Shown in pieces: positions 35,531 to 59,360 of a DNA stretch of 64,000 nt; the stretch's first letter is position 1; the number at the start of each line of letters is the position of its first letter. Source of the DNA: an uncultured Gammaproteobacteria bacterium (lineage in GTDB: Bacteria > Patescibacteriota > Patescibacteriia > UBA9934); assembly GCA_964582615.1 (NCBI GenBank), contig CAZORP010000006.1, positions 3,426-67,425 of the forward strand. The letters run 5' to 3'. Below the pieces are notes generated by a model. That model searched no databases and was not told the DNA's origin. It worked only from the letters and a program-made list of their open reading frames with translations. Both the position numbers and the translations under genes were made by a program.

Positions 35531-35605
35531 TCCGGGGTAGCTCAGCGGCAGAGCAGTTGACTGTTAATCAATTGGTCGTGGGTTCGATCCCCACCCCCGG
35601 AGCCA
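35531..35605 (+). tRNA. tRNA-Asn (anticodon GTT), CCA encoded
   Basis: Cloverleaf: acceptor tccgggg/ccccgga, D-arm gctc-agcggca-gagc, anticodon stem gttga/tcaat (one G-U pair) with loop cuGUUaa, T-arm gtggg-ttcgatc-cccac, discriminator G, then CCA. Confidence 0.9.
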
Positions 35606-38687: not shown

Positions 38688-41642
38688 CTATTTGTGTTCG
38701 TTGACCGACTTTACCACGTGGTCGAACATCTTTTCGCCGAAGTACGCCTTTAGGTCTGGATTCTTGTCGAGTTTTTTGTAGAAGTCAAAGTGACGGTTTA
38801 GCATCTCAACTAGCTCTTGGCCGAGCACCTCGTCGAATTTGATCTTTGCCGTATCCCGCGCGTTGTTTTTAATCGACCCCTGCAACATTGCGTTATTTAC
38901 CAACCTCTCGCCCAGCTGATTCGTAATAACGACATCTTCGAGAGTGAACTCAGTGCCAAATCGATCGTTGATGTCCGTGATGATTTTCGACAGACGATCA
39001 TGTTCCTTCATCTCTTCGCCTCGCTTGCCGCTTTGCATCGGTTCCAACAATCCATGCTCGTCCTCCAGGTGGATCGCGTCCTGCCCACGGTGTACGAGCT
39101 TGTATGATTCCATGTCAACGCTATCCAGCACCGCTGTTGGCAACTCTTCTTTAATTCGCGGTAATTTTTTCAAGAGCAAGCGTGTGAAAGTGTAGAGTTT
39201 TTCCAGTTCAGAGCTTTCGTACGGAATAATCTGTGAAGCAAACGCATAACGGCGGACGAAATCGGTACACTTCTTGCGGAAATCTTCCTGCTCTTGCGGC
39301 AGGCAATCCTCGAATTGTTGCACTGTCGCATCAAGGATGGCGTTAATCGTCGCCGGAGGCGCGTTGCGAAATAGTTCGTGTACGAATCCGTCCACCTCAT
39401 GCTGTGTGAACAGCTTAAAGGAATAGAGATCGCGCTCGAGGTCATGGAGGATATTCGGGTCCGTGCCTTCGGAAAGAACGGTGGTCGTGTAGTATGGTTG
39501 GAACGATTCTTGGATGTCGGCAGCATCGTTTACGAAGTCGAGCACAAATACCTCGTCCTTGTCCGACGTGGTGCGATTCAATCGGCTAAGCGTCTGCACT
39601 GCGCTAACGCCACTCAGCTTTTTATCGACATACATCGAGGCGAGGAGGGGCTGATCGAAACCTGTCTGGAATTTTTCGGCGACAATTAGGAATTTGAACT
39701 CGTCCTGCTCGAACGTCTTCGCAGTGGTCGCCTCAGGAACGCCATTCATGCCTCCTTCGGTATATTCGGTCACTCCGTCCTTAACCGTGCCGGAAAACGC
39801 TACCAGAGCCTTATACGGGTAATTGTGTTCGCGTAGGTAGGCATCCATAGCTATCTTGTAACGCACGGCATGTAAACGTGACTTTGTCACAATCATGGCC
39901 TTGGCTTTGCCGTGAATTTCCTTCGCGATTCGCGCGCGGAAATGCTCGGTCATGATCTCAACCTTCTTTTGGATTGCGTGCTCGTGTTTTTCAACATAAC
40001 CAATCAAAAGACGTTGAGCTTTTTTCTTGTCGAATTCCGGATCGTCCTCAACTTTCTTCAACAACGAAAAATACGCCTGATACGTTGTATAGTTTTTGAG
40101 TACGTCCAAGATAAATCGCTCCTCAATGGCTTGTTTCATCGAGTACAGGCTGAACGGATAATACTTTCCATCAACTGGACTCTTTGTTCCGAACAACTCA
40201 AGCGTTTTTTGTTTTGGAGTCGCGGTAAACGCAAAAAAGCTGATGTTATCCGTTTTCACCTTTCGGCTCCGGAGTTTTTTCAAGATCATCTCTTCTGTCG
40301 TCTCAGGCTCTTCTGAATCCTGTTGTGCCGCCGCGTCGAGACTAGAGGTCGTTAATGCTTCACGGAGATTCGCGGCTCCTTCACCGGTTTGTGATGAATG
40401 TGCCTCGTCAATAATCACCGCAAAGTTTTTTCCAGGAAGATTGCCGATTGAGTCGACGATAAACGGGAATTTTTGAAGAGTCGTGATGACGATCTTTTCT
40501 CCGGTTTCCAACGCATCCTTTAACTCCTGTGAACCTTCAGTAATCGCTTTCACGACTCCCGCGCGTTGCTCGAACTGCGTGACCGTATCGCGTAACTGAC
40601 GGTCGAGCACACGACGATCCGTAATAACAAGAACGGTATCAAAAACCTTTTTGTCATCATGGTTGTACAGTTCTGAAAGACGATGCGCAGTCCAACCAAT
40701 CGTATTACTCTTGCCGCTTCCCGCACTGTGTTGGATGAGATAGTTGCGACCAGCGCCATTCTCACGTGCATCTACGAGCAAACGCTGAACGGTGTCACGC
40801 TGATGATAGCGTGGAAAAATCAACACTTCCTTGACCGTCTCCTTTCCTTTCTCATCCGTGCTCTTAAGTTTTTGCAGCGTGATGAATTTCCCAACGAGCT
40901 CGAGGATGCTCTTCTTGGTCCAGACATCCTCCCACAGGTACGAGGTCTTATAGCCTCGGTCATTCGGAGGGTTGCCCGCGCCGCTGTTATAGCCCTTGTT
41001 GAACGGCAAGAAGTAGGTTTTGAGTCCAGCAAGCTTCGTCGTCATGTAGACCTGGTCGGCGTCCACAGCGAAGTGTGCCAGACATCGCTTGAAAGCCAAA
41101 AGAGGCTCTTTGTGATCTCGATCCGTCCGGTATTGTTGGATCGCGTTTTTCACCGTCTGTCCGCTCAATTGATTTTTTAGCTCAACGGTAAAAATCGGAA
41201 GACCGTTGAGGAAGATAACGGTATCAATGGACAGATCCGGGTTCTTTTCGCTGAAGTGCACCTGACGCATGACGCTCAAGACATTCGCCTCATAAAGCCG
41301 TCGCGTCTCTTCGTTGATGGCGGAATTTGGCGGGAAATATGCCATCTTGAAATTCACACCATGATCAGTGAATCCATTTCGAAGAACATCAAGCACACCC
41401 CGATTCTTCACCTCATCCGCAAGCCGACCAAATAAATGTTCGTTGAATTCTTCTCCATGAATTTCTAAGAGTTTACCAACCGATTCAGGTTGCGTTGCGT
41501 CGAGGAACTCCAAAACCATTTCAGGATCCACACAAAGACTCTTGAGATAAAGCTGGTTCGACTGCTTGCGATATCCGTTGACCTCGACGAGCTGTTGCTC
41601 GATATATTCTTCGAAGCCGATTTCTTTAGTATTAGTTGGCAT
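38688..41642 (-). CDS. hsdR: Type I restriction enzyme R subunit
   Basis: 984 aa. SF2 helicase motifs (HSAGSGKSNT motif I, VIIDEAHSSQTGE DEAH box). N-terminal nuclease region. Last gene of the hsd operon. Confidence 0.95.
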   Translation of the reverse strand: MPTNTKEIGFEEYIEQQLVEVNGYRKQSNQLYLKSLCVDPEMVLEFLDATQPESVGKLLEIHGEEFNEHLFGRLADEVKNRGVLDVLRNGFTDHGVNFKMAYFPPNSAINEETRRLYEANVLSVMRQVHFSEKNPDLSIDTVIFLNGLPIFTVELKNQLSGQTVKNAIQQYRTDRDHKEPLLAFKRCLAHFAVDADQVYMTTKLAGLKTYFLPFNKGYNSGAGNPPNDRGYKTSYLWEDVWTKKSILELVGKFITLQKLKSTDEKGKETVKEVLIFPRYHQRDTVQRLLVDARENGAGRNYLIQHSAGSGKSNTIGWTAHRLSELYNHDDKKVFDTVLVITDRRVLDRQLRDTVTQFEQRAGVVKAITEGSQELKDALETGEKIVITTLQKFPFIVDSIGNLPGKNFAVIIDEAHSSQTGEGAANLREALTTSSLDAAAQQDSEEPETTEEMILKKLRSRKVKTDNISFFAFTATPKQKTLELFGTKSPVDGKYYPFSLYSMKQAIEERFILDVLKNYTTYQAYFSLLKKVEDDPEFDKKKAQRLLIGYVEKHEHAIQKKVEIMTEHFRARIAKEIHGKAKAMIVTKSRLHAVRYKIAMDAYLREHNYPYKALVAFSGTVKDGVTEYTEGGMNGVPEATTAKTFEQDEFKFLIVAEKFQTGFDQPLLASMYVDKKLSGVSAVQTLSRLNRTTSDKDEVFVLDFVNDAADIQESFQPYYTTTVLSEGTDPNILHDLERDLYSFKLFTQHEVDGFVHELFRNAPPATINAILDATVQQFEDCLPQEQEDFRKKCTDFVRRYAFASQIIPYESSELEKLYTFTRLLLKKLPRIKEELPTAVLDSVDMESYKLVHRGQDAIHLEDEHGLLEPMQSGKRGEEMKEHDRLSKIITDINDRFGTEFTLEDVVITNQLGERLVNNAMLQGSIKNNARDTAKIKFDEVLGQELVEMLNRHFDFYKKLDKNPDLKAYFGEKMFDHVVKSVNEHK

Positions 41643-43002
41643 ATATTTTTCTTAATGTAGCAATTCTTTTCTGTATCGAAGATGAACTTTTATTAACTTC
41701 CTTCATGAAAGCCATAACTTCGTAATGAAATCCGTTATGGATTAGACGTTCGGATAATCGATCTAGCGATGATACGAAGTCGTCTTTTTCCTTATCGTGT
41801 AATCGCTCATGAATTGCCGAAAACTGATATGCTCTAGCTTCTTTAAGAAAATCATCATCAAGATACCAGGAAAAAAGTTTAACCCTTTGAGGATAGGTGA
41901 CCTTTTCCCAATTACAGGTTAAGGCACGATTCAGTAGGGGTAAACCGCGAGCTTTAATTTTCTCCCGCTGATCGCTGACGATTATCTTTGTCACCTCAGC
42001 GATAAAAAGGTTTGATTTGTCTGGATCTTTGTTTGATCCAGGCTGAAGCAAAATATCAAATAGTTTGTATGACCGGTATTCGATCATCTCATCGACAGTT
42101 CTGATAACCACCTTCTTTTGATTGATGGCTAAACCCAAAGCAAGCAGTTTTCTGGAAGCGCAGTAAATGACATGTTCAATTTGATCACGTTTTTTTACAA
42201 TGATTGCCTGGTCATCGGCGTATCGGAAATATTTTGCGCCAATTTCGTCGCAAATTTTCTTGATGTAAATATCGTATTCTTGGAGATAAAAGTTAGCCAA
42301 AATTCGCGAGCAGTCAGACATGGCATCTTGTGGCAACCCTACCGTTTGAGGATTGTAATGATTGATCGACTTGTTCCAGAAATTTAGGAAATGAAAAAGA
42401 AGTGAAAGTTCGTCACGATATTTTCCATCAAAAACTTCTCCTATTTTGCGTTTTAAAATGTCTAAATTAATAGAATCATAAAAATTGGCGATATCTAACT
42501 CAACCACGTATCCCTCGCTAGATTCCTTCAGTGAAACGTAAAGTTTCGCGTTGAAATCCTTGTATGCGATATACCACGCCGTTGGCGAAAACGACCACGA
42601 TGGCATTGATACTGTTGGATCGTAGAGATTTTCAATCTTTTTTTGTATTTCTGCTTCTTCTGCGTCTCTGTAGTTTAGACCACTGATGCTCCAGCCGCCG
42701 AAAGTATTTTCGGTTCTATTTCGAGCAAGTTTATGCTCGAGTCGAATAACGCAATAGTAATAAACGATGTAGTCCCTAATGGTAAAAACAGGAGAGATAC
42801 GAGCAACGCCAGATCCTTTATTGTGAGCAATGTAAAATTCTGGCTTTACTGGATGATATGTTTTGCTTTTAATTGCCGTATAAACCGACTTCAAAAGTTC
42901 CTCTTTTTCTTGGTAGGAAGAGGGGGTATTGAGAGGTAAATTCTGGAATGCTTTCCAGAATTTACGACCAAAAATCTTTTTGAATGATTTATAACTAATC
43001 AT
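41632..43002 (-). CDS. Reverse transcriptase (Abi/UG-like stand-alone RT) embedded between hsdS and hsdR
   Basis: RT motifs: motif 2 region YIAHNKGSGVARISPVFTIRDYIV, motif A LDIANFYDSINLDIL, motif B' GLPQDAMSDCSRILANFYL, motif C FRYADDQAII (YADD), motif D LAINQKKVVIR. About 150 aa of C-terminal extension with no known domain. It overlaps the hsdR start by 11 nt and abuts the hsdS stop. Confidence 0.8.
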   Translation of the reverse strand: MISYKSFKKIFGRKFWKAFQNLPLNTPSSYQEKEELLKSVYTAIKSKTYHPVKPEFYIAHNKGSGVARISPVFTIRDYIVYYYCVIRLEHKLARNRTENTFGGWSISGLNYRDAEEAEIQKKIENLYDPTVSMPSWSFSPTAWYIAYKDFNAKLYVSLKESSEGYVVELDIANFYDSINLDILKRKIGEVFDGKYRDELSLLFHFLNFWNKSINHYNPQTVGLPQDAMSDCSRILANFYLQEYDIYIKKICDEIGAKYFRYADDQAIIVKKRDQIEHVIYCASRKLLALGLAINQKKVVIRTVDEMIEYRSYKLFDILLQPGSNKDPDKSNLFIAEVTKIIVSDQREKIKARGLPLLNRALTCNWEKVTYPQRVKLFSWYLDDDFLKEARAYQFSAIHERLHDKEKDDFVSSLDRLSERLIHNGFHYEVMAFMKEVNKSSSSIQKRIATLRKIYAN

Positions 43003-43015
43003 GTATACGTCAGAC

Positions 43016-44233
43016 CTATCCAAGAACAGTCATCACATTTAGTGACTGACTATATTCCGTGAGGAGATTAATCGATTTATCAATGGAGCCGATCACTGAG
43101 TTAAACAATTTTGTTTTTTCGTTTAAGTAATCAACGATTCTTTTTTGTTCGTTAATTTGAGGTAGAATGATCTTTAGGTTTTCAATCACTCCCATGCCAA
43201 TATTTTGTTGTGTCCCGTAAGACCAAGATAACTTAACCTGATCTTGAAATAATTTTGTTTGTAGAAAGAAATAAAGATATTCAGGCAAAACAACGTCCCT
43301 ATTTGCTCTGATTAGGGCAAGCGGTGACCAGATACTAAATTCCTCGTCAGTTTCAACTAGACCAATTCTTCCGGTTGTTGCGCCAGATTTCACCATAAAA
43401 ATATCACCCCGTTGTGGCTTACATTTTTTGCAGAATTCCTCATGATCTTCACGGCTAATGAATCCACGCTTTTCAGCAAAATCGATCGTGTTGTTTCCTT
43501 GAATTGATTGGGCTGAAAGGAATGGGATACCAGAATCAAGTATTTCCGGTGTCGAGTGTGGTCCGTCAGTAATTTTTGTTTTAACAACTTGTTTCAATGA
43601 ACGAATAAAGAAATCTTTTGGGATTTTTTCGATCCATGCAGTATTACTATTGATAAGTTCGACATCATTATTTAAGCCTCGCGTGATTGCTTGATGAATT
43701 ATGAATGCCCTTTGCTCATTTAGTTTTTGAATGAGCCTTTTTTTGTCTTCTATCAATCGTGTGATGATAGTCGAATTTGAATCAAGTTTTTGTACTACTT
43801 TTTCTTGATCGGCTAATGCCGGTAGTTCAATTTTCTGATTACCAATAAAAGTCCAATTTGCGCGAGGCATTTTAGAACCGTAGGTTGAGTTGTTGACCGC
43901 CTTAATGAAGTCATCAGCTCTCAGTCTGTACGCAAGAAATGCTGGATTAACCTTTTCTTTTTTTGAATTGAGGACCAGAAGTTCGCCCGTACAAACCCCC
44001 TCACTTTTAGCCAATACAACCTTCGCGAGATACGGACGAAGCTTTCCGAATAGAACATCGTCTTTTTGGTAATAACTAGTAACACCATCGGAAACGATTG
44101 GGGTTTCCGATTCAATGATCTTGCCCGTGCCGCTTTCAATATTTTCCAGCCCAAGATACGGCAATCCGTCTTCGGACTGACCTCGAGCTCCACGGAGCGG
44201 GGCAATGTATTTGATCTTGATAGATTCGCTCAT
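43016..44233 (-). CDS. hsdS: Type I restriction-modification S (specificity) subunit
   Basis: Two target-recognition domains separated and followed by conserved coiled-coil repeats (LPALADQEKVVQKLD...; LPQINEQKRIVDYLNE...). AT-rich. Start ATG is 1 nt after the hsdM stop. Confidence 0.9.
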   Translation of the reverse strand: MSESIKIKYIAPLRGARGQSEDGLPYLGLENIESGTGKIIESETPIVSDGVTSYYQKDDVLFGKLRPYLAKVVLAKSEGVCTGELLVLNSKKEKVNPAFLAYRLRADDFIKAVNNSTYGSKMPRANWTFIGNQKIELPALADQEKVVQKLDSNSTIITRLIEDKKRLIQKLNEQRAFIIHQAITRGLNNDVELINSNTAWIEKIPKDFFIRSLKQVVKTKITDGPHSTPEILDSGIPFLSAQSIQGNNTIDFAEKRGFISREDHEEFCKKCKPQRGDIFMVKSGATTGRIGLVETDEEFSIWSPLALIRANRDVVLPEYLYFFLQTKLFQDQVKLSWSYGTQQNIGMGVIENLKIILPQINEQKRIVDYLNEKTKLFNSVIGSIDKSINLLTEYSQSLNVMTVLG

Positions 44234-44234
44234 A

Positions 44235-46247
44235 TTACAAACTTCCCATGAGCGTTGAAATTTCTCGCTCAAGCGTTTCTATTTCTTGTTTGATAGTCTC
44301 AATTGGACGTGGCGCTTCGTACTTATAGAAGAAACGCGTCACTGGGATTTCATAACCAACTCGACCTAGCTTTCCATCCTTGTGATCCGTGTAGGATTCA
44401 TCAATCCACGCATCTGCAACATACGGCCTCACTTCACGATCAAAGTACACTCGAACATCTTCGTTCAGTGGCACGTTTTCGCTATCTCGTAGGGTGCTAT
44501 CGGGTTCGATGTTCCCATCGGCAAGAGTGCAGACATCGGCATTTTCATCGCGTTCACCGAGCATTGATAAGATGAATTTCAGAACGGGTTTCTTAAGTTC
44601 AACACCTTGTTCGTCGCATCGCTTCTTGATCGCCTCGACAAACTTTTCTTGGTTCAAATACACCTCGTCACCGAAATTCTCGATAAGTTGGAGAAGCTTT
44701 TGTTTTTCCGGATCGGGCAAGCGATCCTTGGTCATGAAGATTTTCCAGAACACCTCATGCCCCTTGAGGCGTTGGATGCGCTCGGCTGAGGCCTGGAAGT
44801 TCATGCGCAATGGACGTTCAACGACGATTTGTCGATATCCGAAATCGCTATTCTTGAAGATCTTGGAGTATTCATTTTCGGTAAAATCCTTGTAGAGCTC
44901 AAGAACTTTCGATCGATGCGCTTCGGTGATTTCGTTGCGCTTGTTGCCTAAGCTCTTTCGCATCTTCTCAAGGAAGCCACGGGCATCAATGATTTGAACG
45001 AGACCCTTGCGCTTCTCTTCTTTTCGATTCGTCACGAACCAGAGGTATGTAGGAATGCCTGTGTTGAAGAAGAGTTGATCCGGAAGCGCGACAACCGCTT
45101 CGAGCCAGTCGTGCTCCAAAATCCAGCGACGGATTTCGCTTTCACCTTGACCAGCATCACCCGTGAAGAGCGGCGAACCGTTGAAGACAATGCCGATGCG
45201 CGAGCCTCCTTCACTTTCTGGTCGCATCTTTGAAATAAGGTGCTGGAGGAAGAGGAACTGACCGTCGGATGAGCGTGGAAGCCCCGCGCCAAAACGTCCG
45301 GCGTATCCTCGCTCAGCTTCGCGTTCGACGGCGTCCATGTCTTTCTTCCAGTCCACGCCGAATGGTGGGTTGGTCAGCATGTAGTCAAATTGCGTGCCGA
45401 AGAACTGATCGTTCGAAAGTGTGCTTGCGAGCGAGTGATCCTTTTCGCCACCCTTGATGTTGTCCGGATTTTCACCCTTGATCAGCATGTCGGATTTACA
45501 CATGGCGTAGGTGACCGGATTCAGTTCCTGACCATAAAGATACACGCCAGCATCCTTGTTCACGTCGTTACGGATGTACTCCTTGGCGATAGAAAGCATT
45601 CCACCTGTTCCGCATGCGCAGTCGTAGACGGTCTTGATGATGTGTTCCTTTTTCAGCTTCTCGCGGTCCGGGGCGAAGAGAATTTCGACCATGAGCTTAA
45701 TCACGTCGCGTGGAGTGTAGTGTTCTCCAGCCGTCTCATTGGATTGTTCGGAGAACTTGCGGATGAGTTCTTCAAAGATTGATCCCATCTCGTGATTGTC
45801 GACAACATCGGGATGCAAGTCGACCTTGTTCAATTCCTTGATGATGAGATAGAGCAGGTTGCCGCCCTCGAGCCTCGACAACTGGCGATCGAATTCGAAC
45901 TTTTCAACGATGTCCTCGATATTCGCGCTGAAGCCGCGAAGATAGTGTTTGAAGTTGGCGGCAATGTGGTCTGGATCTTCGAGAAGCTTTTCAAAGTCGT
46001 ATTCGGATACGTTGTAAAAGCCGACTTTCGAAGCGGCTTTTAAGACGGGGTCGATATCAATCTTCGCTTTCAGCTCATTGTATTGTTGGAGTACCTTTGA
46101 CTTTGTGGGTGCGAGAAGAGAATCAAGGCGTTTTACTACGACGAGAGGCAAAATGACATCCTGATATTCGTGTTGCTTCCAACTTCCACGAAGTATCTCG
46201 GCGATGTTCCAGATGAGCTGTGCCTTCTCTCGAAAATTGTTGGTCAT
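44235..46247 (-). CDS. hsdM: Type I restriction-modification M (N6-adenine methyltransferase) subunit
   Basis: DCACGTGGML (motif I, AdoMet binding) and NPPFGVDWKKD (motif IV). HsdM N-terminal domain present. Confidence 0.95.
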   Translation of the reverse strand: MTNNFREKAQLIWNIAEILRGSWKQHEYQDVILPLVVVKRLDSLLAPTKSKVLQQYNELKAKIDIDPVLKAASKVGFYNVSEYDFEKLLEDPDHIAANFKHYLRGFSANIEDIVEKFEFDRQLSRLEGGNLLYLIIKELNKVDLHPDVVDNHEMGSIFEELIRKFSEQSNETAGEHYTPRDVIKLMVEILFAPDREKLKKEHIIKTVYDCACGTGGMLSIAKEYIRNDVNKDAGVYLYGQELNPVTYAMCKSDMLIKGENPDNIKGGEKDHSLASTLSNDQFFGTQFDYMLTNPPFGVDWKKDMDAVEREAERGYAGRFGAGLPRSSDGQFLFLQHLISKMRPESEGGSRIGIVFNGSPLFTGDAGQGESEIRRWILEHDWLEAVVALPDQLFFNTGIPTYLWFVTNRKEEKRKGLVQIIDARGFLEKMRKSLGNKRNEITEAHRSKVLELYKDFTENEYSKIFKNSDFGYRQIVVERPLRMNFQASAERIQRLKGHEVFWKIFMTKDRLPDPEKQKLLQLIENFGDEVYLNQEKFVEAIKKRCDEQGVELKKPVLKFILSMLGERDENADVCTLADGNIEPDSTLRDSENVPLNEDVRVYFDREVRPYVADAWIDESYTDHKDGKLGRVGYEIPVTRFFYKYEAPRPIETIKQEIETLEREISTLMGSL

Positions 46248-51834: not shown

Positions 51835-52253
51835 GGTTCTGGGGTGAGAGAAATGAGTCCGAGATTCTGGTAAGAGTTGGTGAGCTTTTCCTTCTCATCG
51901 TCCGTGAGATTTTGCTTTGTTGGGGTCGTAATCTGCACCTTGTTCGCGTACGCCTTGTGGCGGCTGCGCAACCAAAACGAAATCGCGGCGAAGTTTTGTT
52001 CCTTGATCGCGCTGATGAGTTGGGATTCTGCCATGTCGTTGATGAATCCCGTTCCTTCGCCAAGTGCCTCCTCGGTTTGCGCGGCGAATGTCACATCCTC
52101 CGCGATCCATCGGTAATACGTCGCGCGGGCGACGCCGAGCTTCTCGCACGCGACCTGGACGATCGGGATCTTGCGAAGGTGGTCGACAAGAAGCTTTTTC
52201 TGCTCTTCCTGCCGCTTGTCGATGAGCGGGCTATTTCGCTTTGTCCTTGGCAT
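51762..52253 (-). CDS. terS: Phage terminase small subunit (HTH type)
   Basis: ACEKLGVARATYYRWIAED HTH near the N-terminus. It overlaps the terL start. Confidence 0.65.
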   Translation of the reverse strand: MPRTKRNSPLIDKRQEEQKKLLVDHLRKIPIVQVACEKLGVARATYYRWIAEDVTFAAQTEEALGEGTGFINDMAESQLISAIKEQNFAAISFWLRSRHKAYANKVQITTPTKQNLTDDEKEKLTNSYQNLGLISLTPEPYDKQESPRPADAGSGDEQQDREN

Positions 52254-53034
52254 AAGTCGCGATCTTTACGGCTTTGATGCCGGTTTTCTTTTCGAACCGT
52301 TCGATGCCGGCGGCAACATATTCGGGATCGATTTCGACGCCGAAGCAACGGCGTCCCGTATCCTCGGCTGCAATAATTGCGGTGGAACTTCCGAGGAAGG
52401 CGTCATATACGACGTCACCGATCTGCGATGAGTTCAAGATCATCCGACGAATAAGCCCAACCGGCTTCATAGTGGGATGAATACCGGATTTCGAGGGTTT
52501 CGGGTACACAACCACGGATTTGTCCTTCGACTTGAAGAACCGGTGCGTGCCATACCAGCCATATGCGATGAGCTCGTGCTGACCGATGTAGTCGAGCCGC
52601 CCAATTACCGCGTGGTGCTTTACCCATACGAGCAACTGCGTGAACGTCATGCCCGCGTCGAGCATCCCTTCGCGCATGGCGAAGATCATCTTGTCGGCGT
52701 TGAACAGGTACGCGGCGTTCTTTTTCGCCATGTGCGGAATGACCGCTTCGAGCCATGCCTTCGTGAAGGCGCGGTACTGCTCGTCCGTCTGTTCGTGATC
52801 GTTCTGAATTTCTTTCTCCTTCGCGATCTTGATGTTCAGTCCTTGTTTGCTCGTTGCGTACGCGACTCCGTAAGGTGCGTCCGCGCAGATAAGCGCGACG
52901 CGTTCGCTACCAAGAAGTGCGGATACAAGACCCGCGTCGCAGCTGTCGCCGCAAGCGATGCGATGGTTGCCAAGAGAAAAAATGTCTCCGTAACTAATTG
53001 ATAAGTTTTGCTTTGTCTCCGGTGAGGGTTTCAT
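52231..53034 (-). CDS. Phage-type DNA methyltransferase (beta-class N6A/N4C, DNA_methylase N-4/N-6 family)
   Basis: Motif IV ICADAPYG comes before motif I VYDAFLGSSTAIIAA (beta-class order). Confidence 0.85.
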   Translation of the reverse strand: MKPSPETKQNLSISYGDIFSLGNHRIACGDSCDAGLVSALLGSERVALICADAPYGVAYATSKQGLNIKIAKEKEIQNDHEQTDEQYRAFTKAWLEAVIPHMAKKNAAYLFNADKMIFAMREGMLDAGMTFTQLLVWVKHHAVIGRLDYIGQHELIAYGWYGTHRFFKSKDKSVVVYPKPSKSGIHPTMKPVGLIRRMILNSSQIGDVVYDAFLGSSTAIIAAEDTGRRCFGVEIDPEYVAAGIERFEKKTGIKAVKIATYAKDKAK

Positions 53035-54298
53035 ATCTGTCGATAATTACTTGAGTGAACACAGGCGACTGTTCGATCATGTACGCTTTACGCTTCATTT
53101 GTTCGCACGAGGTCATGAGAGACCCCGATCCCGCACACAAATCCAACACGCAATCGCCAATTTTTGTGCATCGGCGTAGTGGTTTTTCGGCCAAGGTCGT
53201 CGGCTTTTCGGTAGGATGGGTGTAGTCTTGTCCGTTCACGCGTTTCGCGAGCCAAATATCCATCACGTCCCAGATATCGTCGATTGTGCGGTTGCCGGGT
53301 TGTACGTCGCGATTCAAAATTTCCGTGACGCTCGTGATCGCGCTATTGAGAAATGGTTTCCCAATGGTTCCGTACGCGCACGGCTCGTACCCCTTGTTAA
53401 ACGCGACCTGCGGAGTCATGTTGAACGAGTTCTTTACCCATAGGCACGTGCGCCTGTTCATGATGCCGAGTTCGCGGTACAGCTCTTGCAACATCCCAAC
53501 GTAGTTCTGGTCACACCACGAAAAGATGTGTGCGTCTTCAGCGAGAACCGCTTTTCCGTTTTCCAAACACGTCTTCAGGAACGCGCGATATTCGTCGTAC
53601 GTTTTCGCGTCGTTCACCTCGCCGCTGTATTTACCCTTCGTGCTAATGCCCTTGGAATAATCCAGCTTGATGTTGTACGGAAAGTCTGTGTAGAACATTT
53701 GGATCTTCGCGTCGCCGACAACCCGCTTCACGTTGTCGAGTACGGTTGAGTCCGCGCACAAGACGCGATGGTTTCCAAGTTGGTACAGCTGCCCATTCTT
53801 CACCCGCGTCGACTTCGCCTCCTTGACGGCGTGCTCCACGTCGAAGTTATCGTCCTCGGTGGAAAGGGAGTCGCCCCAGATGTCGTTGAGGTCGCCGTCG
53901 TCGAACCCGATGTCCAGCAGTTCGCCGATGTCGAACGCTTTCAGTAATTCGTAATCCCACGCGCCGGTGTTTTTGTTGAGACGAATTAAAAGCTCGCGTT
54001 CCTTTTCGAGGCTCGGAATGTTTACGAAGACAACGGGAACCTCAGTCATGCCGAGATCCTTGGCACACTGGAGTCTGAAGTGGCCGCCGATCAAAATGTT
54101 CTCACGCCCCTTGGCACAGTTCGCGATCAGTGGATCAACGAGGCCGAACTTACGGATGCTCTCGCGGAGCTTTTCCGCCGCGGGTTCGTCCCACGTGCGC
54201 GGGTTCTTCTCGTTCGCCTGCAATGAATTAATGGGTACGTTCACGATCCGGAGATCGCGTGCGGCCGTTTTTGACCGCACTAAAGAGGAACTCTTCAT
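52994..54298 (-). CDS. ParB-like nuclease domain fused to a DNA methyltransferase
   Basis: N-terminal ParB/Srx-like region (IVNVPINSLQANEKNPRTW...GGHFRLQCAKDLG). C-terminal MTase with motif IV YTDFPYN and motif I VLDLCAGSGSLMTS. Confidence 0.85.
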   Translation of the reverse strand: MKSSSLVRSKTAARDLRIVNVPINSLQANEKNPRTWDEPAAEKLRESIRKFGLVDPLIANCAKGRENILIGGHFRLQCAKDLGMTEVPVVFVNIPSLEKERELLIRLNKNTGAWDYELLKAFDIGELLDIGFDDGDLNDIWGDSLSTEDDNFDVEHAVKEAKSTRVKNGQLYQLGNHRVLCADSTVLDNVKRVVGDAKIQMFYTDFPYNIKLDYSKGISTKGKYSGEVNDAKTYDEYRAFLKTCLENGKAVLAEDAHIFSWCDQNYVGMLQELYRELGIMNRRTCLWVKNSFNMTPQVAFNKGYEPCAYGTIGKPFLNSAITSVTEILNRDVQPGNRTIDDIWDVMDIWLAKRVNGQDYTHPTEKPTTLAEKPLRRCTKIGDCVLDLCAGSGSLMTSCEQMKRKAYMIEQSPVFTQVIIDRYETLTGDKAKLIN

Positions 54299-54614
54299 AG
54301 GAAGAATCTCTTAAAGTGATGGAACGCAAACGCGTTCTTCATCGGTCGCGGGAGCTAATCCGCCGTACCTTCTCAAAGCACATGCCTTGTGCTACCTGCG
54401 AAGACCCCTTTGCCGCCTCCAGGGCGATCTGCTTGAAAATACAGTACAACACTATGGCAAATGCTACAAAGTAATTTGGCTAATATTAGCAATATAACAA
54501 AGTCGACAAAGTTGAAAAAGAGAAAAAGTCAGTCAACATTTACGCTAACGTTTGCATCGTTCTACGAAATAACTGTTTCAAGAAATTTTCAAAATATTTT
54601 CAGAATGAGTAACT

Positions 54615-54923
54615 TTGTCTGTGGATAAGTTATGTCACACGAAGTTGGAGTGCATACCGTTCTGGGAATGGAACGAAACGATGAAACCTGATACTGTTTC
54701 GTTAAATGTCCTTGATTTTGAAGCCTTTATGAATTCCGGTGAAGAGACACTTGTCAGCCTGATTGACACACATCTTTCCAGCGAACAGCGGACGCTCATG
54801 TCGTCAATTGATCTCGAAGCTGAAGTCGCGGATATTCTCGAAACCTTGAAAACGGAAGGGCTCGTTTCGTTTGGCGAACAAGTTGATGATTCCTATGCAC
54901 ATCAAGAAACTCAAGAAGAGTAA
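54615..54923 (+). CDS. Small strongly acidic protein, translationally coupled to the downstream ATPase
   Basis: 102 aa from a TTG start, or 80 aa from the internal ATG (MKPDTVSLNV...), very D/E-rich. It overlaps the first codons of the AAA_13 gene. An AT-rich promoter-like region lies upstream. Confidence 0.4.
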   Translation: MSVDKLCHTKLECIPFWEWNETMKPDTVSLNVLDFEAFMNSGEETLVSLIDTHLSSEQRTLMSSIDLEAEVADILETLKTEGLVSFGEQVDDSYAHQETQEE

Positions 54924-57267
54924 CAACGTATTCTCGTACGGCTCTTTTGAGTGGGATGCTATTAATCCTCAAAAACTACTCAATAACGATGGAAAACTGG
55001 TTGACAGTAAAAACGAATTTGAAAAATGCAACGTTCTCTTCGGAGAGAACGGGAACGGAAAATCAAAGTTGGTAAAAATTTTCCGTGCGCTGCACGATCC
55101 GCATCGGTCGTTGGAAAAGCATCGTGATTTGCAGGGACAGCCTCAGGAGATCGAAATTTTGTTTGACGACGACACGGTGACAACCAATGCTGGGAATGGG
55201 TGGTCGGACAGAAGAGCAGAAGGTAAATTTGTCATATTCGACAAGCATTACGTCGATGCGTTCGTGCATTCGCCGGGAACGCATGACGGAGACACTCCGC
55301 AACGAAAACAACAGCGAGGGAAAAACATCGTCTACCTTGGTAATTTCGGTAAATACAATGAAGAAATCGACAAACTTAACGACCTCAAAAACAAAATCAG
55401 GGATGAAAATGAGCGCGCCCTAAAAGCCCAGCATCAAATCATCAGTGGCATCATCACGCCCCATGGTTACACCATGGAACTCATTGGCCAAAGCCGGGCC
55501 GCCATCGAAACGGCCGATGTCGCGGGATTGGTTGAACTAAAGGATGCAAAGTTGAAAGTTGTAGAAGAGGTGACAAAAATACAGACCGCGATTTCCCAAT
55601 CCCAAAAAGTCAGCAATCTCGAGGCGCTCGCACTCCAATCGAGAAGCATTTTTTCTTTGACGGAAGAAGTCGGCGGAGTTGTTGCCGTCGTCAAAACGAC
55701 CGACCTGTTTGCGTTCACGGTCTCGGCAGGTATTCAAAAGACGATTCAGAAAATTGCAGGTAAAAAAGAATTCATTCACCAAGGCGTAGGATTGCTGACC
55801 AAGGACGCGGATACATGTCCATTTTGCGAACAATCAATCAGCGACTCTACGCATAAGCAAATCATCGACGACTACCAATCGATTTTCACGGAAACCTTCG
55901 AGCAGGAACAAATGCGAATTCGTCGCTTACTATCTTCGTACAAATCGCAACTTATAGCGCTGAGAGACCTGCAAATCACGAGCTCTGAAGCGTCGAAAAT
56001 CACAGCAGCATCTCCTTTCTTTTCCGATTTACCTGCATTGCCAAATCTTGCGCCTCCGGAAGAGGATCGCGAGATTCTTGAGGCGGAAATTTCCCTTGTC
56101 GAACAGAAGCTTAGCCAACTTCTTGAGAAGATCGACCCTCCCAACCAGGAACGTATTCGCGTAATTGCAGAAGCGACAGAACAGAGAATCGTCGAATATA
56201 ACCGCATCGCCGGAGAGGTAAATACAAAGATTGACGAATTGAAGAAAAATGCTCTCTCTGGCAAATTGAACGATCAGCTTGAATTATTAAAAAAGCGCCA
56301 TGTCGAATTAGACCAAAATATTTTTTTCATCGAGAACCAAAAGCCATTGCTTCGGTACTTTGCTTCCATCGACGACGACAAAAAGAACAAGAAAGTGGTA
56401 GCGGACCTCGAGGAGGTTTACCAAAACATGAAGGTGGCAATCGTGGACAAATTTACGTCCTTCGTCACGGATTACTTCTCGCTCATCGAGGATATCTTGG
56501 GACGCATCAGCCCAGGAATGGGAATCTTCGACATCACTGGCCAAGCTACTTATACCCGAGTCGGAAAAGAGCCGGCGCAATGTGGATTTCGAATTACGTA
56601 CAACGGTAATGAGTGTTCTGAGGGGTTGAGTGATGGCGAGAGACAGGCGGTCGCGCTTGCATATTTCTTTGCTCAGCTGGAAAAGCTCGCCGACAAGGAT
56701 AGGATCATCATCTTTGATGACCCCATCACGAATTTCGACACCGGAAAGCGGAAGGCGACGGCTGAGCTGATTTACAAAAAGTCCCTGGAATTCGCACAAA
56801 CGTTTGTGTTCACATGCGATCCGCTGTTCAGGGAATTCTGCCTCAAGGCAGGCACGGTGAAGGCGTATTCGATATACCATACTGGTGGCTCATCGGCTGT
56901 TTATTTTGTACCGAAGCATATCGCGCGAATCCAAGACGCATTCGAGGAGAGTATGCGCGGAATGGATTCTCTAACTGGAACGCCGGAGAATGTCGTTATA
57001 TTTGGTCAGAAGCTTCGTTTTTGTCTGGAAACGAAGATCAAGGAAGATTACTTCGGGTACTCAAAGGACAGCCTCCGTAATATGTTGGAAACTGTCTCCG
57101 CTCAAGGCGGACAGAAATTCCAAGATCTCATTTCAAACATGGATGAGATCGTGGAGATTTACAATTACTGCAACACTGGAGGGCTCGCGCATTATCCCAG
57201 GGATGGTTCTACAAGCTGGACTGAACTCAAAGGAATGGTTGCCAGATATTTTGCACTTGGCCTTTAA
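54871..57267 (+). CDS. AAA_13/ABC-type ATPase with a coiled-coil insert and CxxC zinc-hook motif (RloC/PrrC-like anticodon-nuclease architecture)
   Basis: Walker A GENGNGKSK near the N-terminus. A roughly 500-aa coiled-coil insert with DTCPFCEQ in the middle. ABC signature LSDGERQAVALAYFFAQ, Walker B IIIFDDP and D-loop near the C-terminus, followed by a 170-aa C-terminal domain. Confidence 0.65.
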   Translation: MANKLMIPMHIKKLKKSNNVFSYGSFEWDAINPQKLLNNDGKLVDSKNEFEKCNVLFGENGNGKSKLVKIFRALHDPHRSLEKHRDLQGQPQEIEILFDDDTVTTNAGNGWSDRRAEGKFVIFDKHYVDAFVHSPGTHDGDTPQRKQQRGKNIVYLGNFGKYNEEIDKLNDLKNKIRDENERALKAQHQIISGIITPHGYTMELIGQSRAAIETADVAGLVELKDAKLKVVEEVTKIQTAISQSQKVSNLEALALQSRSIFSLTEEVGGVVAVVKTTDLFAFTVSAGIQKTIQKIAGKKEFIHQGVGLLTKDADTCPFCEQSISDSTHKQIIDDYQSIFTETFEQEQMRIRRLLSSYKSQLIALRDLQITSSEASKITAASPFFSDLPALPNLAPPEEDREILEAEISLVEQKLSQLLEKIDPPNQERIRVIAEATEQRIVEYNRIAGEVNTKIDELKKNALSGKLNDQLELLKKRHVELDQNIFFIENQKPLLRYFASIDDDKKNKKVVADLEEVYQNMKVAIVDKFTSFVTDYFSLIEDILGRISPGMGIFDITGQATYTRVGKEPAQCGFRITYNGNECSEGLSDGERQAVALAYFFAQLEKLADKDRIIIFDDPITNFDTGKRKATAELIYKKSLEFAQTFVFTCDPLFREFCLKAGTVKAYSIYHTGGSSAVYFVPKHIARIQDAFEESMRGMDSLTGTPENVVIFGQKLRFCLETKIKEDYFGYSKDSLRNMLETVSAQGGQKFQDLISNMDEIVEIYNYCNTGGLAHYPRDGSTSWTELKGMVARYFALGL

Positions 57268-57270
57268 TGA

Positions 57271-57780
57271 TCAGGAGGCGAGGTTTGGATTCTCTTCCTT
57301 CAAAAACACGAAATACCAGAAGTGCTTGCCGTTGCGAATTTCACGGGCTTTGAGTTCTCCGATGCGCACTTTCTTTGCCACAGTCGAATGATGCCAGCCG
57401 AACTTTTTCTTAAAATCGTCTGACGAATACCAGCTCTTACGGTCGGTCGCAACGGTACCCGGAATCACGCCATCTTCGACCGCCTTTTGGCACGGGCGAC
57501 ACTTGATGCCGAACCTGTCGAACCAGCCCTCGCCGCCTTCTAAGTGTTGGTAGCAAACGATACAGTTGTATGTACCATTTGAAGGAACGGCGAAGCCATT
57601 AGGTTCCGCAACGAGCCGCTCTTTCCATCGTTCGATCCTCGTGTGGACGTTCAGCAGAGCGCGGTAGAAACCGAGCAGATTTTCTGAGTATTCCAGTGCC
57701 TGGGCGTCGGTCAGGTCCTGGTCGTACTCCTTCTTCCAAAGCTCCTTAAACGACTGAATCCGTTCGTCATTTGTGCGCAT
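57271..57780 (-). CDS. Zn-ribbon + HTH_17 (excisionase/MerR-like) DNA-binding protein
   Basis: CxxC...CxxC (NCIVCYQ...KCRPCQK) then C-terminal WYSSDDFKKKFGWHHSTVAKKVRIGELKAREIRNGKHFWYF, which fits the HTH_17 pattern. Probable start MRTNDERIQ, internal to the 242-aa ORF. A truncated paralog lies at 61798..62058. Confidence 0.5.
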   Translation of the reverse strand: MRTNDERIQSFKELWKKEYDQDLTDAQALEYSENLLGFYRALLNVHTRIERWKERLVAEPNGFAVPSNGTYNCIVCYQHLEGGEGWFDRFGIKCRPCQKAVEDGVIPGTVATDRKSWYSSDDFKKKFGWHHSTVAKKVRIGELKAREIRNGKHFWYFVFLKEENPNLAS

Positions 57781-57847
57781 AGGATTATTGTGAAAAGCCC
57801 TTGAAACCATCGTATTCCTGATTTGAGACACAAGCCATTCTCGTGTC

Positions 57848-58148
57848 TCATTTGTCTCATTTCGATGAGACCCGGGTGCCAGTTTGACCCCTCCAAAAGA
57901 CCCCTTAAACATTGTCGAAAGGTGAGTTCGAGACCCGTACGCCGAGCCAAGTGGAAACGGCTGGAGCAATCTGGTCGTTTTTACTTTTGTATCAGTCATT
58001 ATTAAGTGGTTCTAACCTTGCGGAATCGTTCTCAAGAGCCTTTTGCGATTCGAAGATAGGAACGAGCCAAGGATTGGGGTTAATGCTGAGCTTTCCGTTC
58101 AAAAGTGTCGGGTTCGAACTTGAAACAGTTCGAATTTTGTTTTATGCT
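57848..58148. repeat. Copy A of a conserved structured non-coding element upstream of the Zn-ribbon regulator (with a 130-bp insertion relative to copy B)
   Basis: Shares about 85% identity over roughly 110 nt with 62119..62259. Hairpin GTCTCAtttcgATGAGAC. Two GAGACCCG(G/T)(G/A)(T/C)GCC direct repeats and repeated GACCCCT motifs. A terminal hairpin GGTTCGAACttgaaacaGTTCGAAtt followed by ttttgtttta on the plus strand. Confidence 0.6.
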
Positions 58149-58157
58149 AGGAATTAT

Positions 58158-59360
58158 ATGCGTTCTGAAAAACAAAATAATTCACTCATCAAAACAGTAA
58201 TTACCATCCTCGCAGCTTCGGTTATTCAAATATCAGCAGGCTGGTTTTTGTTGAGTAATATTGTTTTTGCCGATTCGCACCCCAATCTCATTGAATCGAT
58301 TTTGTACTTTTTGCTCGTACTCACTTCTTACGCAGCAACTCTTGCGGTTTACATCAAGACAGCACGTGCGAAGCAGGCGGTACTGCTTGGAATACTTGGT
58401 TACTTCGCTTCAGCGGTAATACTTACACTCGCACCATTAATCAATGGTTTTTATGTAACAGGCGTTGGTGGCGTCGGGCTGGTCAGCCTATCGGTAATGA
58501 CCGTTCACCTAATAATTTTACTTTTCACACTCAAGTTACTGAAAATAAATAGAGAGGTGGGTAGGACTAAAATAGAGTTAAAGAATTTTGCAATTGCTTT
58601 TCTCTGTGTCGCCGTATCGTTATTTTTCATAGGCTTCTTCAAAACACTTGCATGGAATACTGAACCGAATTCATATTTGGCACTAGGCTATCTAGATCTA
58701 AAAGATCTAGCTGCGAGTATTAGGGAGTCGCTCTTTATGGGTCTGCTGAGTGTCATATTAGATCTCCGAATTCTAGGTATCTTAACGGCATACTCGGTAC
58801 TGATTTACATCTTATTGGGACGGGTAGGAAAACATCTGAATTTCAGCAAAAAGATTTTAGTTATATTTGTACCAATCTGGATCGTCATCGCTCTATTTGT
58901 AGCAATGAGTGGTCAAACATTGAAACAGGGTCTACATGACAATTTCAGTAATTTTCAACCAACTTGGGATAATCAAAGTTTGATCACTAATCATAAAGTT
59001 GAACTCAGCGGAGTTTCATTTACCGTTTGGTGCGATACCACTCTAGACGTAAGCGACCAAAGTATAGAATGTAAAAATCGCTATACGGTTTTACCTACGG
59101 ATCGTTTAAGGACACCACGAGACACGTATTCGAAACAGATCAACGTAGGTTTGTTTGAAAAAGTGGCGATTCAGTCAAATACCACAACAGAATGTGTTTA
59201 CACCGAAAACGATATACAGATTGATAATGCGTTTTTCACATTGAAAACGGAATGGTGTGATTCTAGAAACTTCCCAGTCATGGCAGGGATCGAATGGGAG
59301 GAGTTCATCTTGCCGTTAATGGAGTGTTTCGGTTTTGATAAGTGCGAAACGACTCAGTGA
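58158..59360 (+). CDS. Polytopic membrane protein with a C-terminal Cys-containing soluble domain; last gene of the island
   Basis: Start at MRSEKQNN (internal ATG of the 482-aa ORF). About 8 TM helices, then a 140-aa hydrophilic tail with 5 Cys. Confidence 0.45.
   Translation: MRSEKQNNSLIKTVITILAASVIQISAGWFLLSNIVFADSHPNLIESILYFLLVLTSYAATLAVYIKTARAKQAVLLGILGYFASAVILTLAPLINGFYVTGVGGVGLVSLSVMTVHLIILLFTLKLLKINREVGRTKIELKNFAIAFLCVAVSLFFIGFFKTLAWNTEPNSYLALGYLDLKDLAASIRESLFMGLLSVILDLRILGILTAYSVLIYILLGRVGKHLNFSKKILVIFVPIWIVIALFVAMSGQTLKQGLHDNFSNFQPTWDNQSLITNHKVELSGVSFTVWCDTTLDVSDQSIECKNRYTVLPTDRLRTPRDTYSKQINVGLFEKVAIQSNTTTECVYTENDIQIDNAFFTLKTEWCDSRNFPVMAGIEWEEFILPLMECFGFDKCETTQ

Follow-up and report, generated by a model that had tools for sequence, protein, structure and literature searches.

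The window, by which we mean the whole stretch of 64,000 nucleotides that was analysed, contains a small gene that overlaps the start of a gene for an RloC-like ATPase (Table 1). Both ORFs noticed in an earlier, sequence-only reading of this DNA were found to be real and on the + strand, and the overlap of 29 nt between them was confirmed (small ORF end at 54923, ATPase ATG at 54895). The large ORF had been called from TTG 54871 to 57267 (798 aa, + strand), and the start at ATG 54895 is backed by the deposited protein P0001 (790 aa, 100% identical) and by the N-termini of the homologues (MxIKKL...), all of which use this ATG; all residue numbers of the large protein refer to this 790-aa form. 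The small protein had been put at 80-100 aa: the lower figure is that of the deposited form, 64 aa is likelier because the start at ATG 54729 agrees with the closest relative, P0073 (64 aa, 78% identical), and the 102-aa version from TTG 54615 was rejected as it was without support.

A type I hsd locus lies 8.4 kb upstream of the pair on the opposite strand, which bears out the distance of about 8 kb given before. The pair itself is not within an R-M operon in the window, and it is possible that the type I locus of the same island is its partner in trans. No RNA family was found with Rfam on 54000-58200, and promoter and terminator scans gave counts not above those of shuffled sequence.

Table 1. 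Coordinates of the gene pair, its sequence motifs and its genomic context in the window
Feature	Position	Strand	Description
Type I R-M locus (hsdR, hsdS, hsdM) with embedded reverse transcriptase	38688..46247	-	Same island; context only
Two N6/N4 DNA methyltransferases, one with fused ParB_N domain	52231..54298	-	Immediate upstream neighbours, divergently transcribed; context only
Small partner gene	54681..54923	+	80 aa from ATG 54681 (deposited, P0062); more likely 64 aa from ATG 54729
Gene overlap	54895..54923	+	29 nt, 3' end of small gene and 5' end of ATPase gene, different frames
RloC-like ATPase gene	54895..57267	+	790 aa: split ABC ATPase head, helical insert with CxxC zinc hook, C-terminal nuclease-type domain
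Walker A / P-loop GENGNGKS	55042..55065	+	Residues 50-57; E51, N52, G55, K56 invariant in 30 homologues
CPFC zinc-hook motif	55816..55827	+	Residues 308-311; C308, P309, F310, C311, E312 invariant in 30 homologues
ABC signature LSDGERQ	56626..56646	+	Residues 578-584
Walker B RIIIFDD	56701..56721	+	Residues 603-609
H-loop position FTCDP	56809..56823	+	Residues 639-643; Cys641 at the conserved ABC switch histidine site
C-terminal helical domain	56911..57264	+	Residues ~673-790; candidate anticodon-nuclease triad
Triad codons	R708 57016-57018; E712 57028-57030; H766 57190-57192	+	Invariant in 30 homologues

Architecture and family membership of the large protein

Pfam AAA_13 matched the large protein at 1.5e-32, in line with the HMM search suggested by the sequence-only reading, and because this match covers model positions 13-568 of 713, the C-terminal ~140 aa of the protein are without a Pfam match. 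The best PADLOC match was PDC-S06 (PDLC04895, 1.8e-32, residues 38-638), accompanied by 12 further PDC-S06 models, and it likewise ends before the C-terminal domain. The PrrC match that was also to be sought did not materialise, as the PADLOC PrrC model (PDLC02360) gave no match to the large protein at E <= 0.1, although it does match the ATPase part of two proteins of a sister RloC-like group. PDB sequence searches returned SMC, Rad50 and ABC heads only, the best matches being SMC and Rad50 heads, and a solved structure of RloC or PrrC was not found among them. We collected 56 homologues of the 790-aa protein at 36-73% identity, 53 of which span 98-100% of the query, and several carry the JGI name 'wobble nucleotide-excising tRNase'. 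The homologues are mostly in Patescibacteria, and their distribution is sporadic, on islands and linked to R-M systems, on which grounds a housekeeping SMC identity was rejected; the family was essentially absent from viral contigs in a scan of IMG/VR, so we do not regard it as a phage gene.

The key residues of the ABC motifs were invariant or nearly invariant, including Q84 in all 30 homologues, and Walker A lies near residue 50 as previously read. The coiled-coil insert had been given as about 500 aa, which is the distance from Walker A to the signature; the insert that splits the ABC head (roughly residues 150-525) measures ~370 aa. Near its middle stands the invariant CPFCE, in agreement with the CxxC zinc-hook motif that had been claimed, and the CPFC aligns with that of RloC-like proteins of Methylorubrum and Rhodoferax. 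Proline-rich breaks interrupt the insert at residues ~375-418, and a crude coiled-coil scan (heptad, Pro/Gly) was uninformative. The histidine that characterizes the H-loop of the ABC superfamily is replaced in the large protein by Cys641, which stands opposite the His of SHD when the Methylorubrum and Rhodoferax proteins are aligned. This Cys is invariant in the clade (TCD in every member where the search pattern located the loop), whereas the sister RloC-like group retains the His (THH or THD), and the Cys is thus strictly clade-specific. The change from His to Cys has probably weakened the internal ATPase switch.

The C-terminal module is of nuclease type, as had been thought possible, but it is about 120-140 aa long and not ~170 aa. 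Aligned with the C-domain of the sister RloC-like AAA_13 proteins, it scored 99.1% in hhalign (E 5.6e-19), while a Pfam search of the isolated domain gave no match and Foldseek against the PDB gave no significant one. A candidate catalytic triad of PrrC type is present in the form Arg/Glu/His instead of the Arg/Asn/His that had been expected (R708-x3-E712-x53-H766), and it aligns with the same residues of the sister proteins. Its Glu-His spacing of 53 is one beyond the published range of 36-52; by our own count the Rhodoferax protein also has 53, and the sister proteins have 49-55. The same triad was essential by mutagenesis in GkaRloC and PrrC. The canonical HEPN motif Rx4-6H is absent, as H766 is preceded by YCNTGGLA with an invariant N760 (N760-x5-H766) and without Arg; RloC and PrrC are described in the literature as atypical HEPN domains.

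Davidov and Kaufmann (2008) defined RloC by ABC motifs (Walker A, Q-loop, signature, Walker B, D-loop), a CXXC and a C-proximal Arg-X3-Glu-X36-52-His triad; in activity, RloC is an anticodon nuclease that excises the wobble nucleotide and is activated by a DNA-dependent ATPase. The large protein has the ABC ATPase motifs, the CXXC within a long, largely helical insert, the triad, and homology to an RloC orthologue: BLASTP aligned its residues 41-645 (2e-15) collinearly, with CPFC matched, to a 770-aa protein of the Rhodoferax ferrireducens T118 plasmid, which we equated with no. 39 in Table S1 of Davidov and Kaufmann by organism and length, not by accession. A plasmid-borne RloC-like protein of Methylorubrum aligned end to end (9e-30) with CPFC and R-x3-E in register, and another listed RloC orthologue was sought in 100 kb of the Shewanella ANA-3 plasmid, taken as two segments, and not found there. 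Therefore, on the basis of the ABC motifs, CPFC, the triad, C-domain homology and collinearity with the Rhodoferax protein, we conclude that the large protein fits the published sequence definition of RloC and is a divergent member of this family with a putative nuclease activity. The RloC-type architecture first read from the letters is thereby upheld, including the similarity of the C-terminal domain to anticodon-nuclease domains, and the idea of a housekeeping SMC-like protein falls away.

The small partner gene and its linkage

Wherever the DNA upstream of a homologous ATPase gene could be read, a small ORF precedes the gene and runs over its start; the overlaps that were measured came to 8-29 nt, and the ATPase ATG was inside the small ORF in all sequences inspected. 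The small ORF was detected by profile in 12 distinct related loci, and in 3 more, where it is divergent, it was recognised by its position. Its non-overlapping part is under purifying selection (dN/dS 0.04-0.49), and its protein's pairwise identities correlate with those of the large protein (r 0.81, Mantel p about 2e-4), the small protein evolving fast (9-79% identity vs 28-86% for the ATPase). The protein typically has ~55 residues with a conserved core of ~45 aa (profile E values down to 1e-31), which is predicted to form three short helices (model of only moderate confidence, pLDDT 68); behind the core comes an acidic tail, for which coil is predicted at low confidence. We conclude from this sequence evidence that the small ORF is a genuine gene, and its conservation settles in the affirmative a point on which the initial proposal depended. 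The arrangement is that of a type II toxin-antitoxin system, with the small gene upstream of, overlapping and co-inherited with the large gene.

The partner appears to be new to RloC loci, as had been suspected: it is absent from the RloC literature examined, from both sister-group loci that show the upstream gene and from ~25 more distant RloC-like loci. The small protein had no match in Pfam, NCBIfam or PADLOC, no relative by fold was found, no known antitoxin fold and no DNA-binding fold, which type II antitoxins often have, was detected in it, and a third round of profile searching, with the small-protein alignment broadened, returned only stand-alone proteins of 48-88 aa and no fusions. 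Its description as highly acidic holds for this copy (pI 4.05, net charge -14 to -16) and fails for most relatives, which are mildly acidic (net 0 to -10). Since strong acidity is confined to this copy, its close relative and few others, a DNA-mimic role, which had been offered as one explanation, is improbable for the whole family and was rejected. Most loci had no clear Shine-Dalgarno sequence, and the ATPase start is usually without one.

Among 14 distinct loci, the pair is directly 3' of an R-M operon and co-oriented with it in 9, and at least six kinds of R-M system are represented, with type I, type III-like, Eco57I-type, AlwI, an EcoRI-methylase with GmrSD_N-HNH and an N6_Mtase-S fusion among the linked systems. 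No nuclease partner of SbcD/Mre11 type was found in the related loci examined.

A proposed two-gene defence module and its alternatives

We propose that the two genes form a defence module with an anticodon nuclease of the RloC family at its centre, a reading to which we give a probability of about 0.6. By analogy with published work on GkaRloC, AbaRloC and EcoPrrC, phage infection or DNA damage would cause the ATPase and zinc-hook region to free the C-terminal RNase, which would then cut tRNA anticodon loops and stop translation, so that tRNA cutting would act as a second line of defence once restriction fails. The small protein may be a dedicated, antitoxin-like external silencer or gate of the nuclease, a role that we favour at somewhat less than even odds. 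Its synthesis would precede that of the nuclease and be stoichiometrically coupled to it, and the small protein would replace or supplement an internal ATPase switch weakened by the H-loop change; silencing from outside would make the module portable among unrelated R-M systems. A further step, which we take only tentatively and with somewhat lower expectation, is that the clade represents a distinct two-component RloC, in which the ATPase switch is disabled (His to Cys), control has passed to a silencer of ~55 residues, and loss or displacement of the silencer in infection is the trigger. Such a two-component RloC would explain the attachment of the pair to at least six unrelated kinds of R-M system, chiefly in Patescibacteria.

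If the two-component reading is true, an ABC-HEPN nuclease would have in the small protein an immunity or sensor partner of a new kind. How RloC is silenced and switched on has been a question since 2008, and no mechanistic or structural update was found in the literature on RloC after 2021. In the published view RloC needs no external silencer, which explains its spread without R-M linkage; contrary to that view, the small partner of the clade is obligate and co-evolves with the ATPase, a residue of the ATPase switch is changed, and the R-M linkage is like that of PrrC. The clade therefore offers a natural experiment on RloC regulation. The pair also adds a defined defence module for Patescibacteria, in which phage defences are poorly charted.

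An alternative that we consider unlikely is that the small protein, as a sensor or adaptor, switches the nuclease on and does not silence it. Its ligand might be a phage anti-restriction protein, or it might signal the condition of the adjoining R-M enzyme or of DNA ends, a part that in the case of PrrC falls to the R-M protein and to Stp, a peptide of T4. The consistent position of the pair at the ends of R-M operons is compatible with such a sensor, as are the precedent of PrrC, whose regulators are an R-M protein and a phage peptide, and the fast evolution of the small protein, which is expected if it is engaged with phage factors. However, with at least six unrelated kinds of R-M system linked to the pair, a conserved contact to an R-M subunit is improbable, and the gene order and overlap resemble those of antitoxin-toxin pairs.

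Less likely again is that the large protein is not an RNase at all, its C-terminal bundle being non-catalytic and regulatory or protein-binding, and the module a Rad50/SbcC-like one acting on DNA or an ATPase accessory to the R-M enzyme. The SMC and Rad50 heads among the best PDB matches, the missing Rx4-6H motif and the C-domain without significant structural or Pfam match could all be read in this way, but the R-x3-E...H triad is invariant in 30 homologues, aligned with the sister RloC-like proteins and shown by mutation to be indispensable to GkaRloC and PrrC, and the loci have no SbcD/Mre11-type nuclease partner. We think it very improbable that the small ORF is merely a translational leader with a functionless peptide, setting low, coupled expression of a toxic gene; the ATPase start inside the small ORF, usually without Shine-Dalgarno sequence, and the low-expression signals reported for RloC genes would suit a leader, while the purifying selection outside the overlap, the conserved 45-aa core and its three predicted helices speak against one. 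Finally, programmed ribosomal frameshifting that fuses the two ORFs into one protein was rejected as scarcely credible: A-rich runs occur in the overlap at several loci (e.g. A AAA AAA C), but there is no slippery run in the window or in loci L004, L007 and L013, the ATPase starts from a conserved ATG of its own, located at the first beta-strand in the ABC fold, and no fused homologue was present among 59 small-protein clusters or 56 ATPase homologues.

Comparison with known systems

The large protein shares with Rad50/SbcC and SMC proteins the split ABC head, the long helical insert and the CxxC hook, and differs from them in its additional nuclease-type domain at the C terminus, its sporadic, island-borne distribution and the lack of an Mre11/SbcD partner. 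HEPN toxins with a small inhibitor (RnlA/RnlB, LsoA/LsoB, HEPN/MNT) resemble the proposed module in that a potentially self-harming RNase has its gene beside that of a small protein by which it is held inactive, and the RnlB gene is also upstream of its toxin gene; however, the small protein shows no similarity to RnlB, MNT or Pfam families, and the large protein additionally has a Rad50-like ATPase switch. With PDC-S06, a single-gene AAA_13 defence candidate for which we found no mechanistic description in the citing papers examined, all matches listed are to the large protein, and the small ORF matches no PADLOC model, a case that shows how a second component can escape single-gene models of the PDC-S06 kind.

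PrrC/EcoprrI (E. coli, silenced by the type Ic R-M enzyme) also combines an ABC NTPase with a C-terminal nuclease and a similar triad, and the R-M linkage, the idea of an external silencer and the second line of defence after restriction are further likenesses. PrrC, however, has ~340-416 aa without a coiled-coil or zinc-hook insert, compared with 790 aa and an insert of ~370 aa here, its silencer is the R-M enzyme itself and not a dedicated small protein, and the present gene is not embedded in a type Ic hsd locus as prrC is.

The closest likeness in architecture is to RloC of Geobacillus kaustophilus and Acinetobacter baylyi (Davidov and Kaufmann 2008; Klaiman et al. 2012, 2013), with a size of ~800 aa, an ABC head interrupted by a long insert that has the CxxC hook at its centre, a C-terminal Arg-x3-Glu...His triad, and a location on mobile islands. 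The earlier statement that Rlo genes are by definition hsd-linked was too strong, as in 2008 R-M linkage was seen for only 8 of 72 RloC genes, whereas this clade is usually linked. The clade is moreover set apart by the overlapping upstream gene for a small protein, seen in none of the other RloC-like loci examined, by the H-loop Cys in place of His, by the C-domain motif YCNTGGLAH and by its occurrence mostly in Patescibacteria, while published RloC is described with an internal silencer and no need of an external one. The catalytic kind as such is already known.

An RloC-family ATPase and its C-terminal domain

Two overlapping ORFs lie on the forward strand of the window (table below), and their coordinates bear out the 29-nt overlap described in the sequence-only reading of this DNA. 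The large protein matches Pfam AAA_13 (1.5e-32, only model positions 13-568 of 713), its MxIKKL first strand is the equivalent start in all homologues, and it carries the Walker A, CxxC, signature and Walker B motifs named in that reading, which is correct apart from two sizes: the head-splitting insert spans about 370 aa, not ~500 aa, and the C-terminal domain about 120-140 aa, not ~170 aa. Among 5.8 billion proteins searched, 56 relatives were identified, almost all of them full-length proteins of 785-799 aa with 42-73% identity. Wherever an organism was named, the source was a Patescibacteria metagenome-assembled genome; several of the relatives are named 'wobble nucleotide-excising tRNase' by JGI. 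In an alignment of 30 relatives, the P-loop, Q84, CPFCE 308-312, the signature and D608-D609 were invariant, as were R708, E712 and H766 in the C-terminal part.

Features of the two ORFs and of the surrounding island (window positions unless given as residues of the 790-aa protein)
Feature	Position	Strand	Remark
Large ORF	open TTG 54871 to stop 57267	+	790-aa product from ATG 54895; deposited protein P0001, 100% identical
Small ORF	ends 54923	+	end 29 nt inside large gene
Walker A GENGNGKS	residues 50-57		
CPFC	residues 308-311		
Signature LSDGERQ	residues 578-584		
Walker B RIIIFDD	residues 603-609		
H-loop position FTCDP	56809-56823, residues 639-643	+	Cys in place of ABC histidine
PDC-S18/DUF5655 gene	37682-38638		1e-103
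Type I hsd locus	38688-46247		
Reverse transcriptase	41632-43023	-	between hsdR and hsdS; defence-associated RT_UG13b 2e-122
Protein with SoFic-like C-terminus	46249-47154		
PDC-S26/PDDEXK_4 gene	47485-48648		5e-109
DUF2779/Cas4-like nuclease	48655-50121		
AbiJ_NTD4/PDC-S32-like protein	60771-61607		

In the definition of Davidov and Kaufmann, RloC combines ABC ATPase motifs with a CXXC in a coiled-coil insert and with an Arg-X3-Glu-X36-52-His triad that their mutagenesis confirmed; all three features are present in the large protein, with a Glu-His spacing of 53. The spacing is also 53, by our own count, in a 770-aa plasmid protein of Rhodoferax ferrireducens T118, equated by organism and length with entry no. 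39 in their table, and 49-55 in the sister group (RloC-like AAA_13 proteins with a homologous C-domain); therefore, the published X36-52 range is approximate. BLASTP aligned the large protein with the Rhodoferax protein over residues 41-645, including CPFC (2e-15), and with a Methylorubrum plasmid RloC-like protein end to end, including CPFC and R-x3-E (9e-30). By the published sequence criteria the large protein belongs to the RloC family, in keeping with the RloC/PrrC architecture proposed in the first reading. On the Methylorubrum plasmid (L067), a zincin-like metallopeptidase domain gene, possibly ArdC-like (1480-2496), lies ~2.3 kb from the RloC-like gene, an arrangement reminiscent of the RloC-ArdC linkage reported in 2008.

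The isolated C-terminal domain had no Pfam match, and a profile built from it retrieved no more than 44 representatives from 1.84 billion proteins. The strongest 21 were the clade itself (the close relatives with the small partner), some fragments included, and the weaker matches were mostly ~800-aa AAA_13/PDC-S06 proteins sharing the motifs GQxLRxxxE and YCNxSNxxH. hhalign paired the clade and sister C-domain alignments at 99.1% probability (E 5.6e-19) and matched their R, E, CN and H columns to one another. The domain lacks the canonical HEPN Rx4-6H motif, RloC/PrrC domains are published as atypical HEPN, and PDB sequence searches found no solved RloC or PrrC structure. We predict an RloC/PrrC-type nuclease domain, on the basis of homology, the triad and the published atypical-HEPN class rather than fold recognition.

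The small partner and the H-loop cysteine

In each of the three distant loci examined first, the ATPase gene start is overlapped by a 53-59-aa ORF, and the products align with one another and with the small protein of the window. A profile matched the same-position ORF in the window and in 15 related locus records, which reduce to 12 distinct loci because L003, L005 and L006 are duplicates; L068 carries this ORF as well, and the more divergent L017, L018 and L069 have a similar small ORF at that position that escaped the profile. Overlaps were 8-29 nt in the loci measured. The dN/dS of the small ORF was 0.04-0.49 in non-overlapping codons, and small and large protein pairwise identities correlated in 14 loci (r 0.81, Mantel p about 2e-4), with faster divergence in the small protein. 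Profile searches gave 59 small-protein clusters, all 48-88 aa long and none of them named, fused to another protein or carrying a Pfam domain. Such an ORF occurred in 0 of about 25 more distant RloC-like loci and in neither of the two sister-group loci with the upstream gene in view; one of these two directly follows an Eco57I-type methylase gene. The small protein is thus a real, clade-specific partner and a working gene, conserved in homologous loci, and the RloC papers examined do not describe it, nor does later literature add an update, in agreement with the remark in the first reading that such a partner is not known for described RloC loci. Its proposed size of 80-100 aa holds for the deposited call from ATG 54681 (P0062, 80 aa), while ATG 54729 gives 64 aa and fits the nearest relative, P0073 (64 aa, 78% identical); its highly acidic character holds for this copy and that relative (net charge -14), other small proteins having 0 to -10.

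In the type I-linked L068, the small gene (P0066, 7802-8032) was called with a 22-residue N-terminal extension (...NEDELVFYDALANNE...) that runs over the end of a YgjP-like gene located between hsdR and the pair; translation probably begins at the internal MTLLEL instead. The overlap region of L001, L002, L009, L011 and L012 contains A-rich runs resembling slippery sites (e.g. A AAA AAA C); the MIKK codons that AT-rich genomes use in the ATPase gene account for them, and the window has none. In L077/L078, the RloC-like gene of sister-group protein P0098 has no partner and comes directly after helicase and Eco57I/N6_Mtase genes; WYL and NYN genes follow it, and bAvd plus a reverse transcriptase, a diversity-generating retroelement-like set, lie nearby.

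In all partner-bearing clade members with the loop located, a cysteine (as TCD) aligns with the H-loop histidine, whereas no sister-group protein has it, the RloC-like sisters keeping THH, THD or SHD. This histidine is needed for efficient hydrolysis in other ABC ATPases. The GkaRloC nuclease is unleashed by ATP hydrolysis, and the change is expected to weaken the internal ATPase switch of the clade.

Restriction-modification linkage and genomic setting

Elsewhere, the pair lies directly downstream of co-oriented R-M genes at 9 of the 14 distinct loci, the systems being type I (L004, L068), type III-like (L002), Eco57I-type (L001, L008), AlwI (L007), an EcoRI-methylase with a GmrSD_N-HNH nuclease (L009, L013) and an N6_Mtase-S fusion (L012). 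The initial statement that Rlo genes are hsd-linked by definition goes too far, since only 8/72 published RloC genes had R-M linkage; the type I hsd locus placed in the same island is indeed there. The pair is on a conjugative-type element in L015, serine recombinases flank other loci, and viral contigs essentially lack the family. Patescibacteria, Spirochaetota, Acidobacteriota and Ignavibacteria are among the hosts; the module therefore moves horizontally.

In the window, chromosomal genes (including ClpB, a shorter-than-usual AlaRS and MetRS) extend to a tRNA-Asn(GTT) gene at 35531-35605, after which come a large serine recombinase (with Resolvase, Recombinase and Zn_ribbon_recom domains) and then a dense defence island. 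The segment 35531-37562 separates housekeeping genes on its left from defence genes on its right and is probably the integration end of the island. The island holds the type I R-M locus with its embedded DRT-type reverse transcriptase, several PADLOC candidates, a terminase-like gene, two methyltransferases and the pair. The segment 50093-54298 (-) looks like a prophage remnant; its 656-aa protein, weakly matching a terminase RNaseH-like domain (1.2e-4), adjoins two N6/N4 methyltransferases, one fused to ParB_N, and no restriction endonuclease was recognised beside these. A 242-aa gene (57271-57999, -) converges on the ATPase gene, leaving 3 nt between the two; its Cys pairs resemble a zinc ribbon, the MADS mad1 model matches it weakly (E 0.02), and related loci do not conserve it.

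Proposed mechanism and relation to known systems

With the architecture, conserved residues, obligatory partner, H-loop change and R-M linkage directly observed, the RloC and PrrC literature suggests that the ATPase/zinc-hook region would sense DNA ends or failed restriction, that the C-domain would then cut tRNA anticodon loops, and that this cleavage would abort infection. We tentatively regard the small protein as a putative external silencer or gate of the nuclease (probability about 0.4), because it is encoded first with translation coupled to the nuclease, is small with a tail modelled as coil at low confidence, is strictly co-inherited, and accompanies the H-loop cysteine, which probably weakens the internal switch. 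That it is an activating sensor or adaptor is unlikely, as the variety of linked R-M types disfavours a conserved contact with an R-M subunit. A non-nuclease role of the C-domain is more doubtful still, given the invariant R708, E712 and H766 and the hhalign match to the sister domains, and a mere coupling leader is very improbable for an ORF with such dN/dS values. Frameshift fusion of the two ORFs can practically be dismissed, slippery-like runs being absent from the window.

The large protein shares with RloC the ABC ATPase motifs, the CXXC in the insert and the Arg-X3-Glu...His triad; PrrC identity is excluded by its size, its insert and the absence of a PrrC model match. The clade differs from described RloC by its obligate small partner, its H-loop cysteine, its frequent R-M linkage and its C-domain motif.
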